This document shows, piece after piece, positions 6,867-12,367 of a stretch of DNA of 64,000 bases. The first letter of the stretch is position 1, and every line of letters begins with the position of its first letter. The position numbers and the translations under genes are program-made. A model generated the notes under the pieces. That model was not told where the DNA came from. It saw only the letters and a list, made by a program, of their open reading frames with translations, and ran no database searches. This DNA comes from an uncultured Candidatus Rokubacteria bacterium (GTDB taxonomy: Bacteria; Methylomirabilota; Methylomirabilia; Rokubacteriales; DASRDR01), in assembly GCA_963708025.1 (NCBI GenBank), contig CAVPSB010000016.1:288001-352000 (forward strand). Reading direction: 5' to 3'.

Positions 6867-7544
6867 GTGCCGCCACCCCGCCGGCCGCCTCCACGCTCCC
6901 CCCGCGGTCCGAGCCGGGGATGGTCGGCCCGGCGGGTGCCGATCCTGGTCGGCGCCCTCGCGGTGGTGGCCGTGGGCTCCTACTGGTGGGCCGGCGCGCC
7001 GCCCGGTCCGCCGCCGCTCGATCCCGGCCGGGACGTCATCGTCTTCCTCGGCGACAGCATTACCTCGGGCCACGGGCTGCCGCTCCCGCTCACCTTCCCG
7101 CATCGGGTCGGGGACAGTCTCGGGGTGGACATCCGGAACGCCGGGATCCCGGGTGACCTCACGGCGGGCGGCCTGGCCCGCCTCGACCGCGACGTCCTGG
7201 CTCACCGGCCGAAGCTGGTGGTCGTGGAGCTCGGGGTGAACGACGCCTTCCGGCGACTACCGGCCGGGCAGACGCTCGGCAACCTGCGGGCGATCGTGCG
7301 GCGGATCCGGCAAGACGGCGCGGGCGTGCTCCTCGTTCACATCGATCCCCGGCCGATCGGGCCCGACAACTACCGCCAGGGGTACAAGGACCTCGCCCGG
7401 GCAGAGGGGACGTGGCTCGTCGAGGACTTCCTGACCGGCGTCGCCCCGGGACTCACCACCGACGGGCTCCACCCCAACGAGGAGGGCCACGCCCGCCTGG
7501 CCGCCAGGCTGGAGCCGGTGCTGCGAGAAATCCTCGCCCGGTGA
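6867..7544 (+). CDS. SGNH/GDSL-family esterase (TesA/arylesterase-like), membrane-anchored
   Basis: FLGDSITSG, NAGIPGD, ELGVND, DGLHPN; true start may be GTG about 6936. Confidence 0.9.
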   Translation: MPPPRRPPPRSPRGPSRGWSARRVPILVGALAVVAVGSYWWAGAPPGPPPLDPGRDVIVFLGDSITSGHGLPLPLTFPHRVGDSLGVDIRNAGIPGDLTAGGLARLDRDVLAHRPKLVVVELGVNDAFRRLPAGQTLGNLRAIVRRIRQDGAGVLLVHIDPRPIGPDNYRQGYKDLARAEGTWLVEDFLTGVAPGLTTDGLHPNEEGHARLAARLEPVLREILAR

Positions 7545-7554
7545 CCGGGCCCGG

Positions 7555-8622
7555 CTACTTGATGCCCTTGATGCGGAGGCGGAGGTTGTTGGGGCTGTCG
7601 GCGAACTGGAGGGCCGCTTCCTGCGTGATCTTCTTCTCCTGGAAGAGCTTGAGGAGCGCCTGGTCGAGCGTCTGGAGCCCGTCGCTGAGCCCCTCCTCGA
7701 TCGCCTGACGGATCGTCTCCAGCTCGCCGCGCCGGATCAGCGCCTGGATCCGCGGCGTGTTCAGCATGATCTCCAGCGCGGCGACGCGGCCCTTGCCGTC
7801 CACCCGCGGCACCAGCCGCTGGGCGATGACCGCCCGGAGCAGCAGCGAGATCTGCATCAGGATGGATTCCCGGACGTCGGGCGTGAAGAAGTTCAGGAGC
7901 CGCTCGACGGCGCTGGTGGCGTTGGTGGCGTGGAGGGTGGAGAGCACGAGGTGGCCCGTCTCGGCCGAGTGGAGGGCGGTCGCCACCGTCTCGCGATCGC
8001 GCAGCTCCCCCACGAAGATCACGTCGGGCGCCTGGCGCAGGGCGTTCTGGAGCGCCACCAGGTAGGACTCGGTGTCGATCCCCACCTCCCGCTGGGAGAT
8101 GACGCTGCGCCGGCGCTCGTGGATGAATTCCACCGGGTCCTCGATCGTCACGATGTGGCCGGGCGCGTTCAGGTTCCGGTGGTGGATCATGGCGGCCACC
8201 GTCGTCGACTTCCCGGCCCCGGTGGCGCCGACGACGAGGATGAGCCCCTGGCGCTCGAGCCCCAGGCTGCCGAGGATCGGCGGCAGATCCAGCGCCTCGA
8301 ACGTCGGCACCTCCGTCTTCACCCGGCGGAGAACCAGGCCCGTCGCGCCGAGCGTCCGGTAGCAGTTCAGGCGGAACCGGCCGTGAGCCTGGTGCACGTA
8401 GGAGAGGTTCGCCTCCCCGGCCGCCTCGAACGCCTTCCGCTGGACCTCGGGCACGAGCGTGATCAGGAGCTTCTGCATGTCGAGCCGGTTCAGGGGCGGG
8501 GCTCCGTCCAGCGGCTTCGAGACGCCGTCGACCTTGAGGGTCGGGGGCGTGCCCTCGATCAGAAAGACGTCGGACGCGTTGGTCGCGACGGCGGTGGCGA
8601 GGATCGGGTCCAGATCGGTCAC
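7555..8622 (-). CDS. pilU: Type IV pilus retraction ATPase, PilU-like
   Basis: Walker A GATGAGKST, TIEDPVEF, LRQAPDVIFVGELRD, GHLVLSTLHAT; lacks AIRNLIRE; directly downstream of pilT. Confidence 0.85.
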   Translation of the reverse strand: MTDLDPILATAVATNASDVFLIEGTPPTLKVDGVSKPLDGAPPLNRLDMQKLLITLVPEVQRKAFEAAGEANLSYVHQAHGRFRLNCYRTLGATGLVLRRVKTEVPTFEALDLPPILGSLGLERQGLILVVGATGAGKSTTVAAMIHHRNLNAPGHIVTIEDPVEFIHERRRSVISQREVGIDTESYLVALQNALRQAPDVIFVGELRDRETVATALHSAETGHLVLSTLHATNATSAVERLLNFFTPDVRESILMQISLLLRAVIAQRLVPRVDGKGRVAALEIMLNTPRIQALIRRGELETIRQAIEEGLSDGLQTLDQALLKLFQEKKITQEAALQFADSPNNLRLRIKGIK

Positions 8623-8635
8623 GGGCGGCGTCCGA

Positions 8636-9721
8636 TCAGCGAGCGGCGGCCGCGGCCGGGGCGGCGCCGCCCAGGGGCGAGGCGGAGCCGACGGAGGTGG
8701 ACTGGAGGATCGAGTCCGCGTACGCCTTGTCCACGCGTCCCTGCATCATGAACGTCTTCAGCGCCTGCTCCAGACTCTGCATCCCGAGGGCGGTGCCGGT
8801 CTGGATGGCCGAGGGCATCTGGTGGGTCTTGCTCTCGCGGATGAGGTTGCGGATCGCCACGGTGGCCACCATGATCTCCAGCGCCGCCACCCGTCCCTTC
8901 TTGTCCTTGGTCGGCAGCAGGAGCTGGGAGATGACGCCCTGCAGGGCCTCGGCCAGCTGCACGCGCACCTGCTGCTGCTGGGCGGGCGGGAACGCGTCGA
9001 TGATCCGGTCGATGGTCTTGGGCGCGCTCTTGGTGTGGAGCGTGGCGAACACCAGGTGACCGGTCTCGGCGGCGGTCAGCGCCAGGCTGATGGTCTCCAG
9101 GTCCCGCATCTCGCCGACCAGGATGACGTCCGGGTCCTCGCGCAGCGCGGCCCGGAGGGCCGAGGAGAACGACTTGGTGTGGGGGCCGATCTCACGCTGG
9201 TTCACCAGGCTGTTCTTGGACTTGTGCACGAACTCGATCGGGTCCTCCAGGGTGATGATGTGCTTCTTCCTCGCCGAGTTGATCAGGTCGATCATGGCGG
9301 CCAGGGTGGTGGACTTGCCGGAGCCGGTGGGGCCGGTCACCAGCACCAGCCCGTTCTCGCGGAGCGCCAGCGTCTGCACGATCTCCGGGAAGTTGAGCTC
9401 CTGGAACGTGCGGATCTGGGTCGGGATGACGCGGAAAACGGCCCCCTCCCCGTTCCGCTGGTTGAACACGTTCACGCGGAAGCGGGCCACCTCGCCCAGC
9501 TCGATGGCGAAGTCCAGATCGCGAGCCTCCTCGAAGAGGCGGCGCTGGTCGTCGTTCAACAGCTCGTAGATCATCCGGTGGACGCCGTCCCGGGTCAGCA
9601 CCTGGGCGTCGATCGGCGTCAGCTCGCCGTGGATGCGCATCATCGGCCGGGACCCCGCCGAGAGGTGGAGGTCGGAAGCGCTCCGCTCCTTGGTCTGGAT
9701 CAGGAGATCCGCGACATCCAT
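8636..9721 (-). CDS. pilT: Type IV pilus retraction ATPase PilT
   Basis: ASDLHL, GPTGSGKSTT, TLEDPIEF, LREDPDVILVGEMRD, GHLVFATLHT, AIRNLIRE signature. Confidence 0.95.
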   Translation of the reverse strand: MDVADLLIQTKERSASDLHLSAGSRPMMRIHGELTPIDAQVLTRDGVHRMIYELLNDDQRRLFEEARDLDFAIELGEVARFRVNVFNQRNGEGAVFRVIPTQIRTFQELNFPEIVQTLALRENGLVLVTGPTGSGKSTTLAAMIDLINSARKKHIITLEDPIEFVHKSKNSLVNQREIGPHTKSFSSALRAALREDPDVILVGEMRDLETISLALTAAETGHLVFATLHTKSAPKTIDRIIDAFPPAQQQQVRVQLAEALQGVISQLLLPTKDKKGRVAALEIMVATVAIRNLIRESKTHQMPSAIQTGTALGMQSLEQALKTFMMQGRVDKAYADSILQSTSVGSASPLGGAAPAAAAAR

Positions 9722-11103
9722 GTCGGTGGCCCCTGTCGGCCCAGTAGCTCGCGACGCAGCTCATCGGTCAAGGCGAGGGCGCTCACCCGGTGGCGGGCGC
9801 CCTGACGGTGGACGCTGGCCAGCCCGGCGGTCGCGCCGAGCAGCGTGACGCGGGGCACGTCGAGGGCCAGCAGGTGGGCCAGCCCGGTGGCGTTGGTGCC
9901 GGCGGCGAGGCCGGCCAGGACGAGCGCCCCCTGCTCGGCGCTGCCGATGGCGGCCAGGCAGAGCGGGTTTCTGCCCAGCTCCTCGAGGACGACGACGTCG
10001 GCCGGCTGGGCCAGGATCGTCGCCGCCTCGTCGGCGAACTCCCCGGGCACCTCGACCTGGACGAAGTCCGGCACCACGTAGGAGACGGCCCGCTCCAGGG
10101 TCACGATCTTCTTGGCCGGCGCCGCCGCCGCCTGGGCCAGGGCGTAGAGCAGCGCGGCCCGGGCCCGCGACTCCCAGCCGGTCACGAAGACGAGCCCGGC
10201 GCCCCCGATCAGGCGCGAGAGGGTCGCCCGGGTGTCGCCGTCGAGGTCGAAGCTCTCGAGCGTGGGCAGCCCCGCGCGGCGCTGCGAGATCTTGACGGTC
10301 ACCGCTTCCCCGTGGATCGTCGGGAAGAACAGGATCTCGAGCTCGACCTCCTGCTGCTCGAGTCGCGTCCGGATGTGCGACTGGCGGGGAGGGCTCTCGC
10401 CGCGCAGCCCGGCCAGGATACGGAACCGCGAGACGACGGGACCGAGGAGGTTCCGGGGCAGGCGCCCCCGCTCCACCAGCCGGCCCTCCACGCGGTCGCG
10501 GACACGCACGTCGGTGGCCATGGGCTCGACGTGGATCTCGGTCGCCTCCTGGCGGAGGGCACCCAGCAGGAGGGCATAGACCTGGGCGACCCCCGTCGGG
10601 TCACCCTCGACGCCGGCCGCGCCGGGGGCCACCTCCGCGTAGCGGACACCGGGCGTCCGGCTGGTCCCCGGGGGAAAGGCCTTGTCGAGCAGGTGGAGCA
10701 CCGTCTCCCGGGAAGCGATCGCGATCGACACCCGGGCGCCGGTGACCCCTTCCAGCTCCACGATGGCCTGCTGGTTGGTCGGATCGGTCAGGATGACCGT
10801 CAGCTCCTCGCCGACCTGCAACACCGGGAACGCCTCGTGTCGCCGCAACACCTCCTCGGGCATGCCGCGGGCGAGGTCGAGATCGACCATCTCGTCCCGG
10901 AACTCGACGTACGGGATGCCCAGGAGCTCCGAGAGAGCCCAGTTCAGCTCGTCGGCGGTCAGGGCGCCCATCTCGATCAGGATCTCGCCGAGCCGCTTGC
11001 CCTCCTGATACTGGATGCGGAGGGCCTCGCGGAGCTGGTCGGGAGAGACGAAGCCCCGCTCCACGAGGATCTCGCCGAGCCGCCGCTTGGCCGGCTGCGT
11101 CAT
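9700..11103 (-). CDS. PilB/GspE-like protein with MshEN c-di-GMP-binding N-terminus and degenerate, probably inactive ATPase domain
   Basis: RLGEILVERGFVSPDQLREALRIQ and RLGEILIEMGALTADELNWALSEL; ATEIHVEP, PTIHGEAVTVKI; Walker A region reads VTGWESRARAA; ATG 11103 overlaps the REC stop (ATGA). Confidence 0.85.
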   Translation of the reverse strand: MTQPAKRRLGEILVERGFVSPDQLREALRIQYQEGKRLGEILIEMGALTADELNWALSELLGIPYVEFRDEMVDLDLARGMPEEVLRRHEAFPVLQVGEELTVILTDPTNQQAIVELEGVTGARVSIAIASRETVLHLLDKAFPPGTSRTPGVRYAEVAPGAAGVEGDPTGVAQVYALLLGALRQEATEIHVEPMATDVRVRDRVEGRLVERGRLPRNLLGPVVSRFRILAGLRGESPPRQSHIRTRLEQQEVELEILFFPTIHGEAVTVKISQRRAGLPTLESFDLDGDTRATLSRLIGGAGLVFVTGWESRARAALLYALAQAAAAPAKKIVTLERAVSYVVPDFVQVEVPGEFADEAATILAQPADVVVLEELGRNPLCLAAIGSAEQGALVLAGLAAGTNATGLAHLLALDVPRVTLLGATAGLASVHRQGARHRVSALALTDELRRELLGRQGPPTWMSRIS

Positions 11104-11501
11104 GCGGGAGCCTCCGCGATCACGCGGCGCACCGTGCGGGTGAGCTGCTCGGGCGAGAAGGGCTTCGTGAGGTGGGCCACCGCGCCCACCCCCGCGCTCA
11201 GCGTCCGGTAGACGGGCTCGGCCTGGCCGGTCAGGACGATGACGGGGATGTCCCGGGTCGCGGGATGTCCGCGCAGGCGCGTGAGCGTCGTGTATCCATC
11301 CATTCGCGGCATCATCACGTCGAGGATGATGAGGCGCGGCGTCGCCCGGCGGGCTTGCTCGGCGACCTCGTCCCCGTCGGTCGCGGTCGCGGTGACGAAG
11401 CCGGCCTCGCGCAGGACCTCGCACACGAAGTCGCGGACCTCCGGATCGTCGTCGGCGACCAGCACCAGGGGCGGCGGCGCGGCGCCGGGCGCGGCCGCCA
11501 T
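11100..11501 (-). CDS. Single-domain response regulator (CheY-like)
   Basis: VLVADDD, ILDVMMPRMDG, IPVIVLTG, LTKPF; start overlaps the upstream TGA (TGATG). Confidence 0.9.
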   Translation of the reverse strand: MAAAPGAAPPPLVLVADDDPEVRDFVCEVLREAGFVTATATDGDEVAEQARRATPRLIILDVMMPRMDGYTTLTRLRGHPATRDIPVIVLTGQAEPVYRTLSAGVGAVAHLTKPFSPEQLTRTVRRVIAEAPA

Positions 11502-11707
11502 CACTGGGCCTCTTCGATGGTCCCGAGGTGATCGAAGCGCACGAAGATCGGCGGGATCCCCACCCGCTCGAGCACCAGGCCGCTCTCCTCGACACCGCTG
11601 AGCAGGCCCTGGACGCTCCACTCCCGGGCGAGCTTCACGTAGACCTCTTTGCCGAGCAGGCTCCCGATGAAGCGAATCGTGGCCGGGGGTCCCGGCGTGA
11701 CACTCAT
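11501..11707 (-). CDS. 68-aa Sm/Hfq-fold-like protein
   Basis: MSVTPGPPATIRFIGSLLGKEVYVKLAREWSVQGLLSGVEESGLVLERVGIPPIFVRFDHLGTIEEAQ: helix, V-x-V-K-L, G, L-V-L and FVR..L..I pattern of Sm1/Sm2; GGAGG upstream. Confidence 0.6.
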   Translation of the reverse strand: MSVTPGPPATIRFIGSLLGKEVYVKLAREWSVQGLLSGVEESGLVLERVGIPPIFVRFDHLGTIEEAQ

Positions 11708-11740
11708 GTGGGATTGCTCACCCCTCCCGTGGCGGATCAC

Positions 11741-11770
11741 ATTCTGGGCCCCCCGGGGGAGCCGAGTCAA
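11741..11770 (-). promoter_or_regulatory. Sigma70-like promoter for the Sm-like/REC/pilB-like/pilT/pilU operon
   Basis: TTGACT-N18-CAGAAT on the minus strand. Confidence 0.5.
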
Positions 11771-11866: not shown

Positions 11867-12367
11867 CTAGGGGCGGTCGAGGGCCAGGCCGCGGACGATC
11901 CGGACGCCCGGCAGCCGGCGGAGCACCTCCGGGGCCACCTTGATCTTGCCGTCGCGACCCCCGGTGCCGAGGATCACGTAGTCGAGCCCCGTGATGCGGT
12001 CGTCGACGAAGATCGGGAGGCCATCCGGCAAGCCGAAGACCGTCACGCCGCCCACCTTCATGCCGGTCAGCTCCGCCATTTCCGGGCCGGAGGCGAAGGA
12101 GAGCTTGGCGACGCCCAGCAGGTCCCGCACGGCGTGGTTGACGTCGAGCCGGGTGGTGGCGAGCACGACGCAGGCGGCGTACTGCTTCGGCTCCTTCTTC
12201 GAGGCGACCAGGATCGTGTTGCCGGCGTGGTCGGGGGGATAGCCGTAGCGCTCGCAGAATGCGGCGGTGTCCGCGAACTCGGGATCGATCCGGATCAGCT
12301 CGTAGGGGAGGCCGAGGCGGTCGAGGTCGGCGATCGTCCGCTGCTCGGGATCAGGCTCGGCAGTCAC
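11867..12367 (-). CDS. YbaK/EbsC-family aminoacyl-tRNA deacylase-like protein
   Basis: NTILV, KLSFAS, LTGMKVGGVTVFG, IFVDDRI, LGTGGR; start approximate. Confidence 0.85.
   Translation of the reverse strand: MTAEPDPEQRTIADLDRLGLPYELIRIDPEFADTAAFCERYGYPPDHAGNTILVASKKEPKQYAACVVLATTRLDVNHAVRDLLGVAKLSFASGPEMAELTGMKVGGVTVFGLPDGLPIFVDDRITGLDYVILGTGGRDGKIKVAPEVLRRLPGVRIVRGLALDRP

Follow-up and report, generated by a model that had tools for sequence, protein, structure and literature searches.

What becomes of a pilus motor ATPase whose catalytic motifs are gone and which is encoded in one operon with retraction motors that keep theirs? The question is raised by a stretch of 64,000 nucleotides (nt) from an uncultured Candidatus Rokubacteria bacterium (positions 288,001 to 352,000 of contig CAVPSB010000016.1, assembly GCA_963708025.1; hereafter the window). 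At 7555-11770 of the window, five minus-strand genes encode a small Sm/Hfq-like protein, a response-regulator receiver, a degenerate PilB (designated PilB*), PilT and PilU. A reading made from the sequence alone had taken all five for one physical, purely regulatory pilus-control module. We find that the conserved unit comprises four genes, namely receiver, PilB*, PilT and PilU, and that the Sm gene is most likely an accessory gene, co-transcribed with the unit but not required by it. On balance, the comparisons point to PilB* as a pseudo-ATPase regulator of PilT and PilU, gated by phosphorylation and by cyclic di-GMP (c-di-GMP). The features of the locus are as follows.

11741..11770, minus strand: sigma-70-type promoter-like motif, TTGACT-18 nt-CAGAAT (-35/-10 pattern), which travels with the Sm gene
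11501..11707, minus strand: predicted Sm/Hfq-fold protein of 68 residues, from a narrow, lineage-restricted, slightly acidic family (22 homologues, AlphaFold2 model, Foldseek, VIA)
11100..11501, minus strand: single-domain receiver (REC) of 133 residues (PF00072, motifs)
9700..11103, minus strand: PilB*, putative pseudo-ATPase of 467 residues, MshEN(N1D)-N2D-degenerate CTD (profiles, alignment, fold)
10924..11082, minus strand: tandem MshEN c-di-GMP motifs of PilB*, residues 8-60 (NF053729)
10285..10602, minus strand: N2D of PilB* (near residues 168-273), present in each of the 13 PilU fusions
10156..10179, minus strand: degenerate Walker A of PilB*, residues 309-316 (alignment of 45 orthologues)
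8636..9721, minus strand: PilT retraction ATPase, motifs intact (TIGR01420; PDB 3jvu)
7555..8622, minus strand: PilU retraction ATPase, motifs intact (TIGR01420; PDB PilU 9n32)

The five frames have no internal stops, and the layout first described for them was confirmed: the Sm stop and the receiver start share one base (11501, in TGATG), receiver and pilB* overlap in an ATGA at 11100-11103, pilB* and pilT overlap by 22 nt (9700-9721), and a 13-nt gap separates pilT from pilU. Matches to pilC, to a pilin and to a prepilin motif were looked for in the window and none was found, as had been said of the first two. A full type IVa pilus set lies instead on another contig of the genome, C31 (receiver-pilB-pilT-pilC-pilS-pilR-pilin, PilM and secretin).

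PilB* and the four-gene unit

PilB* keeps the domain order of PilB (MshEN-N2D-CTD), and its model (predicted local distance difference test, pLDDT, of 82) has GspE/PilB as top structural matches; it scores 131 bits against TIGR02538, where the cut-off is 676. The catalytic features of PilB, that is, Walker boxes, Asp and His boxes, arginine fingers and zinc site, were taken from PMC5424180 (papers are cited by PMC number, for the parts of their text that were accessible). Among 45 PilB* orthologues, none has an intact Walker A, GExRD or EDPxE motif, and TLH and CxxC are found in one each. The Walker A lysine position is occupied by Arg in 44 of the 45. Every sequence has Glu or Asp in place of the first arginine finger, and 16 have Arg at the second, the finger positions being inferred from the alignment and from the 15-residue spacing to R271/R286 in PMC5424180. 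The zinc-binding insert and the C-terminal part are deleted, the tetracysteine zinc motif is lacking, and only the first Asp-box Glu is kept of the catalytic features. We strongly infer that PilB* no longer hydrolyses ATP. It may retain some nucleotide binding, since the Walker A lysine is so regularly replaced by Arg and two glutamates are invariant.

The frame has been maintained: it is open, with a length of 451 to 476 residues, in 19 sequences down to 41% identity, and breaks occur in one genome only (G018), whose pilT is broken likewise. Canonical PilB is longer by about 100 residues; the last residues of PilB* are encoded in the overlap with pilT. A conserved W-x-S at its C-terminus was considered as a functional motif and rejected, because the overlapping pilT start forces it. 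Atlas look-alikes of residues 160-460 were general T2SSE clusters, known by label alone; dead PilBs may exist in other phyla.

The N-terminal domain has fared differently from the catalytic site. MshEN is made of two 24-residue motifs, RLG...LxxxLxxQ, 5 residues apart (PMC5013675, PMC11731258). PilB* matches 11 of 11 and 9 of 11 consensus positions (NF053729, 68.5 bits against a cut-off of 38), and the c-di-GMP contacts G10, L24, G39, L53 and L57 are invariant in the 45 orthologues. The proposal of a dead PilB with a c-di-GMP-binding motif thus holds, as far as alignments can tell, across the whole set of orthologues, with a near-perfect motif.

The remaining three proteins appear intact, as predicted. 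The receiver (PF00072, 96 bits) has its acidic pocket, Asp61 and its Thr and Lys motifs, and contains a REC domain only. PilT and PilU score 485 and 412 bits against TIGR01420 (cut-off 319), both with intact catalytic motifs, and their identities are upheld by their best PDB matches: for PilT the twitching motility protein 3jvu (E 7e-118, versus 6.5e-79 for PilU 9n32), for PilU 9n32 itself (E 4e-100, aligned through the C-terminus). The term 'purely regulatory' is therefore too strong for the cassette, since two of its products are motors with intact catalytic motifs. Elsewhere (L105:1236-2906, G000:C34) we noted a PilT/PilU-family ATPase of 556 residues, the C-terminal 200 or so of which form an extension that looks nucleotide-cyclase-like by eye and has no Pfam match.

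Other receivers related to this locus were recorded. The canonical pilB-pilT-pilC operon (L069:974-1351, G000:C31) also opens with a single-domain receiver, present in 15 of 16 loci of family f1 and in f3, and in none of the 13 loci of families f2 and f5. The canonical receiver is no close paralogue of that in the cassette (rank 65 of 77), and a simple recent duplication of the canonical receiver-pilB-pilT genes was rejected on this ground. At 59%, the nearest paralogue of the cassette receiver is encoded behind a GAF-GAF-GAF hybrid histidine kinase (L104:6582-10000, G000:C32), a candidate phosphodonor of this receiver family. In an out-group family, a REC-HD-GYP gene directly precedes the receiver, and several receiver genes also stand before the cassette (G023, L063:7626-8651). 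The genome has 5 GGDEF matches.

We then examined how the genes are distributed and ordered in the phylum. PilB* was found in 19 of 251 genomes: this one, 16 of the 20 of its family, and one in each of two small families; the large sister family has none (0 of 159). Of 20 loci fetched, 19 could be used, L020 being dropped as a 30%-identical canonical PilB. The receiver is directly upstream in 18 of these 19, pilT is downstream in 17 and pilU in 15, every missing pilT or pilU being explained by a contig end. pilB* and pilT were both scored at 17 loci, and their 22-nt overlap recurs in 16; for the seventeenth (L010) a value of -82 came from an over-run match, and the PilB* end is like the others. 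This PilU occurs in 17 of 41 genomes, all with PilB*, and in the two PilB* genomes that lack it the locus is cut by a contig end. PilB* is thus inherited and lost together with this PilU. The five-gene synteny proposed at the outset stands for these four genes and fails for the Sm gene, which precedes 5 of the 19 PilB* loci.

Natural fusions support the proposed coupling of receiver, PilB* and PilU. REC-PilB* fusions form two clusters (P0062 and P0063) with 6 full-length sequences from several sources. In addition, genome G005, which also has the normal operon, carries a receiver gene followed by a gene for a 758-residue REC-MshEN-N2D-PilU protein (L102:5835-8548, C88). A search with this protein returned 47 proteins, and the 14 with a REC domain were examined: 7 were REC-MshEN-N2D-PilU, 6 were REC-N2D-PilU and one was internally deleted. 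In all 13 PilU fusions the Walker A and His box of PilU are intact and the two parts are joined where N2D ends. These proteins have diverged (55-68% to the query), which argues that the PilU fusion is old and has been kept. At a strict cut-off, the triple form is present in 1 of 251 genomes.

PilB* as a candidate gate on retraction

How might a PilB without catalysis act on PilT and PilU? In our proposal, the four genes would be an accessory unit that puts under signal control the retraction of a type IVa pilus built elsewhere in the genome. PilB* would bind c-di-GMP through MshEN, and the receiver would bind PilB* according to its own phosphorylation. In motors of this kind, the N2D of one subunit packs on the ATPase domain of the next and gives it the arginine fingers, which is the main contact between subunits (PMC5424180). 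The N2D of PilB* may dock in the same way, like a neighbouring subunit, on the ATPase domain of PilU or PilT, and would then supply a Glu in place of an arginine finger. For a folded N2D that lacks the finger, sits next to PilU or in one chain with it and is connected to a receiver, the simplest role would be that of a gated decoy among the subunits of the retraction ring, so that PilB* would be a brake or gate. In the simplest scheme, retraction would be held back at high c-di-GMP and the receiver would release it, the direction being a guess. We give this regulator role a little better than an even chance.

Several points weigh against it. All its support is comparative. The second-motif Gln is present in only 2 of the 45 PilB* orthologues and missing in 43. 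Over 11 matched genomes, mean identity in PilB* is 56-69%, against 77-91% for active PilB, and this holds in every domain. The fusions count for less than their number suggests: the 13 PilU fusions fall into a single clade, in which both forms are intermingled (approximate likelihood ratio test, SH-aLRT, 86, on a short tree of 114 columns) and probably had one origin, and the REC-PilB* fusions form another, which amounts to about two events. Their constant parts are REC and N2D; 6 of the 13 have lost MshEN and most of the remaining 7 show degradation of its second motif, so that c-di-GMP input appears dispensable there. Operon neighbours can fuse by deletion without interacting, and no fusion includes PilT, although pilB*/pilT is the tightest junction of the operon. 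Finally, the Sm gene seems to be more than a mere passenger: the gap to the next cassette gene is -8 to +28 wherever both occur, and in 2 loci where the receiver is lost it still lies next to pilB*.

The Sm protein and competing readings

That the small protein has an Sm fold was borne out by prediction. AlphaFold2 gives it a helix and five strands, with no Sm loop insert (pLDDT 86.8), the top Foldseek matches are Hfq (template modelling score, TM, about 0.79), and VIA superposes it on Synechocystis Hfq (3hfo) with Z 10.4 and a root-mean-square deviation of 2.2 over 63 aligned residues, Aquifex Hfq (5szd) tying. The modelled product of 11501..11707 is thus of the Sm/Hfq fold. At the sequence level, the family (22 homologues, 66-87% identity) is isolated: none of its 23 members matches PF17209 or PF21979 (Hfq_1), the matches to LSM, RimP-C, DUF6897 and DUF2642 are weak and below significance, and hhalign against E. 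coli Hfq gives a probability of 0.1. A profile search of 1.84 billion representatives failed to widen it, the 7 matches being 3 strong and 1 weak true relatives and 3 long repeat-like proteins. Atlas look-alikes were mostly unnamed clusters, with a cyanobacterial Hfq_1 at rank 15. One family member, P0029, is labelled as coming from a Gemmatimonadota metagenome-assembled genome, which may reflect transfer or mis-binning.

Residues were compared with those of E. coli Hfq at 19% identity, in a register read by eye, using the roles given in PMC10628458. The proximal-site residues Q8, F42, K56 and H57 are not kept (F42 is Gly, YKH is RFD or similar), nor is the rim arginine patch (R16/R17/R19). 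Among the positions of the distal A-rich site (Y25, L26, I30, L32, Q33, T61), in this by-eye register, L26, Q33 and T61 are kept, I30 is an invariant Trp and Y25 is Lys. The mean net charge of the family is -1.6, versus +4 for E. coli Hfq 1-66. Judged by these residues, the protein would work at most like an atypical Hfq. Canonical Hfq was not found in any of the 41 genomes searched, and a profile search of this genome gave no LSM or Hfq_1.

The gene starts at ATG 11707. An 89-residue form from TTG 11770 was rejected, because this TTG opens the -35 hexamer and most of the 22 homologues share the ATG. Of the 12 loci that include DNA upstream of the Sm gene, 11 have a motif TTGACT-N16-19-AGAAT in front of it (10 match the pattern, the eleventh is a one-letter variant), one of them without the cassette, as against 4 sites in the whole 8.2-Mb genome; the promoter-like motif seen in front of the operon is thus more than chance. 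No Rfam match was obtained in 12 loci, which argues against a known riboswitch. RNA runs were also consulted: 9 were listed, none with half of the sequence words, and pieces came from 4, two of which are seemingly one data set. The pieces on the Sm gene, pilB* and the motors span only 151-272 nt and are mostly those of other organisms; among those listed, none bridges an operon junction by 31 nt on both sides.

The Sm gene is rarer than the cassette, being present in 6 of the 251 phylum genomes, plus one weak match. We fetched 18 Sm loci, of which 13 are distinct (L033 and L035-L038 repeat others) and, one being cut, 12 are informative: the receiver is next in 8, pilB* directly next in 2, and there is no cassette in 2. 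In these last two the Sm gene is intact and its divergence unchanged. In a tree, PilB* is one clade (100/100) and the Sm-bearing copies are a sub-clade (85/89), while both out-group copies lack the Sm gene; late gain is the simplest reading, two losses being possible. On that reading, the gene was added to the operon front in one sub-clade and brought its own promoter along. In genus g5, a divergent Sm gene before the receiver was sought by profile and not found, and a sigma-54-type motif (by a consensus that we take to be the standard one) stands in its place in 12 of 12 cassette loci (L006-L011, L013-L016, L018, L019). It lies 118-202 nt before the receiver match, the background being 0.004 per 500 nt. 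A second conserved word, possibly an activator site, occurs about 640-730 nt before pilB* in 9 of the 12. In most relatives, the chromosomal site itself is marked by the same two flanking genes, with or without Sm gene or cassette: a YbaK/tRNA-editing-domain gene upstream (window 11867-12361) and a convergent hydrolase-like gene downstream (6867-7544; SGNH label by eye).

These data bear on the five-part module in which an Sm ring would be an adaptor on PilB* or on the motors, in convergence with cyanobacterial Hfq at the pilus base. Much about the protein would suit such a role: an Sm fold without proximal or rim RNA residues and with slightly negative charge is what one expects of a non-RNA adaptor, its junctions are tight, the cassette follows it in 10 of the 12 informative loci, and cyanobacterial Hfq, itself an unlikely RNA binder, binds PilB (PMC12288463). 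In G080, a PilZ-domain gene is followed by a small open reading frame that is weakly and distantly Sm-like (L058:333-883, E 2.5e-4). However, 14 of the 19 PilB* loci, both out-group families included, do without the Sm gene, as do all 15 g5 genomes, whose cassettes have the sigma-54 motif; the gene persists without cassette, its promoter stays with it, and none of 16 fusion proteins examined has an Sm match. The C-terminal extension that Hfq binds in cyanobacteria is absent from PilB* and canonical PilB alike. As stated by the sequence-only reading, with the Sm protein as an obligate member, the module is not sustained; even as a physical assembly of the Sm-bearing sub-clade we regard it as doubtful.

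A further alternative places PilB* on the extension side, where it would lend c-di-GMP control to the active PilB, by mixing into its ring or by occupying the PilM/PilC socket. What suggests it is a complementary loss, seen when the active-PilB motifs were scored at 30 loci. In family f1, the RLG of motif 1 is RLL in active PilB (16 of 16 sequences), and the equivalent G11L change in V. cholerae MshEN leaves poor if any c-di-GMP binding (PMC5013675); in families f2 and f5, which lack PilB*, both motifs are kept (13 of 13). PilB* has moreover kept its whole N1D. Yet this is a single lineage contrast, four f1 genomes without PilB* (G003, G007, G012, G020) also have RLL, and G022, with PilB*, keeps RLG. 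Synteny and fusions point to PilT and PilU, never to PilB or PilC, and a further PilB-like ATPase, intact and with a good c-di-GMP motif (10 and 10 of 11; NF053729, 61 bits), is encoded in the genome. We consider this role unlikely. The latter ATPase (L070:4794-11340, G000:C16) lies near a kinase-like/MshEN protein and several receivers, with no pilC nearby in the list of open reading frames.

PilB* could also be a scaffold for signalling or localisation, which would inform other processes of the state of the pilus or of c-di-GMP and leave motor activity unchanged. There are parallels: a Walker A-dead PilB of M. xanthus signals to exopolysaccharide production (PMC11656802), and many non-motor regulators carry MshEN, REC fusions included (PMC5013675). 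The strict linkage to pilT and pilU and the N2D-PilU fusions are easier to understand if the role is directed at the motors, which makes a scaffold quite improbable. Least credible of all is a functionless, decaying relic of a duplicated pilB-pilT operon, a view suggested by the lower conservation of PilB* and by the receiver-pilB-pilT order of the canonical locus and already largely refuted by the near-constant open frame, the invariant c-di-GMP contacts, the invariant replacement residues in the dead site, the conserved 22-nt overlap and the distant relationship of the two receivers.

Comparison with known pilus motor systems

The four-gene unit is real and conserved, and this form of type IVa pilus motor control is apparently undescribed. 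No description of it was found in the literature searched, subscription papers and supplements being largely outside that search; Supplementary Tables 3-4 of PMC5013675 list MshEN proteins with their architectures and may bear on its novelty. In the accessible part of a review of PilB cofactors (PMC11656802), no natural dead PilB is mentioned. The case is strong for the dead PilB and its receiver and PilU fusions, and weak for the Sm ring. The unit does not extend beyond a few families of one uncultured order and is known from sequence comparison.

To our knowledge, described pilus-motor regulators act mostly on PilB. The unit bears on the switch from pilus extension to retraction and back, and on how PilU is engaged. 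A dead motor paralogue, together with single-chain REC-N2D-PilU motors, offers a simple route to ask whether a retraction ring can be gated by an extra N2D and whether such gating is under the control of phosphorylation. Should the Sm protein bind as well, the cyanobacterial link between Hfq and pili would gain an independent second case. The boldest version would make PilB* the first pseudo-ATPase motor paralogue to serve as a signal-gated subunit of a retraction ring, integrating phosphorylation with a c-di-GMP sense that active PilB has given up, with a non-chaperone Sm ring recruited in one sub-clade independently of cyanobacteria. We think it improbable in this full form; if true, Sm rings would be a recurrent and general adaptor of type IV pilus motors.

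Among known systems, the nearest in build are the extension ATPases of the PilB/MshE type (V. cholerae MshE, M. xanthus PilB, T. thermophilus PilF), with which PilB* shares the N1D(MshEN)-N2D-CTD order, the fold and the c-di-GMP motif. It differs from them by the loss of Walker A, Walker B, His box, first finger, zinc insert and C-terminal part, and by being encoded with pilT-pilU rather than with pilC, in a genome that has a separate active PilB. The type IVa pilT-pilU operons likewise have tandem pilT and pilU genes with intact motifs; here, a receiver and a dead PilB precede and overlap them, and relatives encode REC-(MshEN)-N2D-PilU proteins.

Receiver-only proteins that bind a pilus motor have been described in Xanthomonas (DrdR, PMC13507683) and Synechocystis (PixE, PMC7690835). 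By description, the cassette receiver resembles them in having no DNA-binding output and in being tied to pilus motors. It differs in being a single REC encoded within a motor operon and fused in nature to the pseudo-ATPase or to N2D-PilU.

The cyanobacterial Hfq-PilB1-EbsA system is alike in its Sm/Hfq fold without the usual RNA-binding residues (a search for literature on these residues in cyanobacterial Hfq returned none) and in the link to a PilB-type gene. In the present case PF21979 and PF17209 are unmatched, the Sm gene is optional and the candidate partner is a dead PilB. The analogy fails at the binding site, because cyanobacterial Hfq binds a cyanobacteria-specific C-terminal extension of PilB (PMC7690835, PMC12288463) that PilB* does not have.

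For the kind of control proposed, namely a non-catalytic protein acting on a pilus motor, the closest parallels are CpiA, a host-encoded PilB inhibitor, and FimX, a degenerate enzyme used as a c-di-GMP receptor (PMC11656802). PilB* would stand apart from both as a paralogue of the motor itself, linked to the retraction motors.

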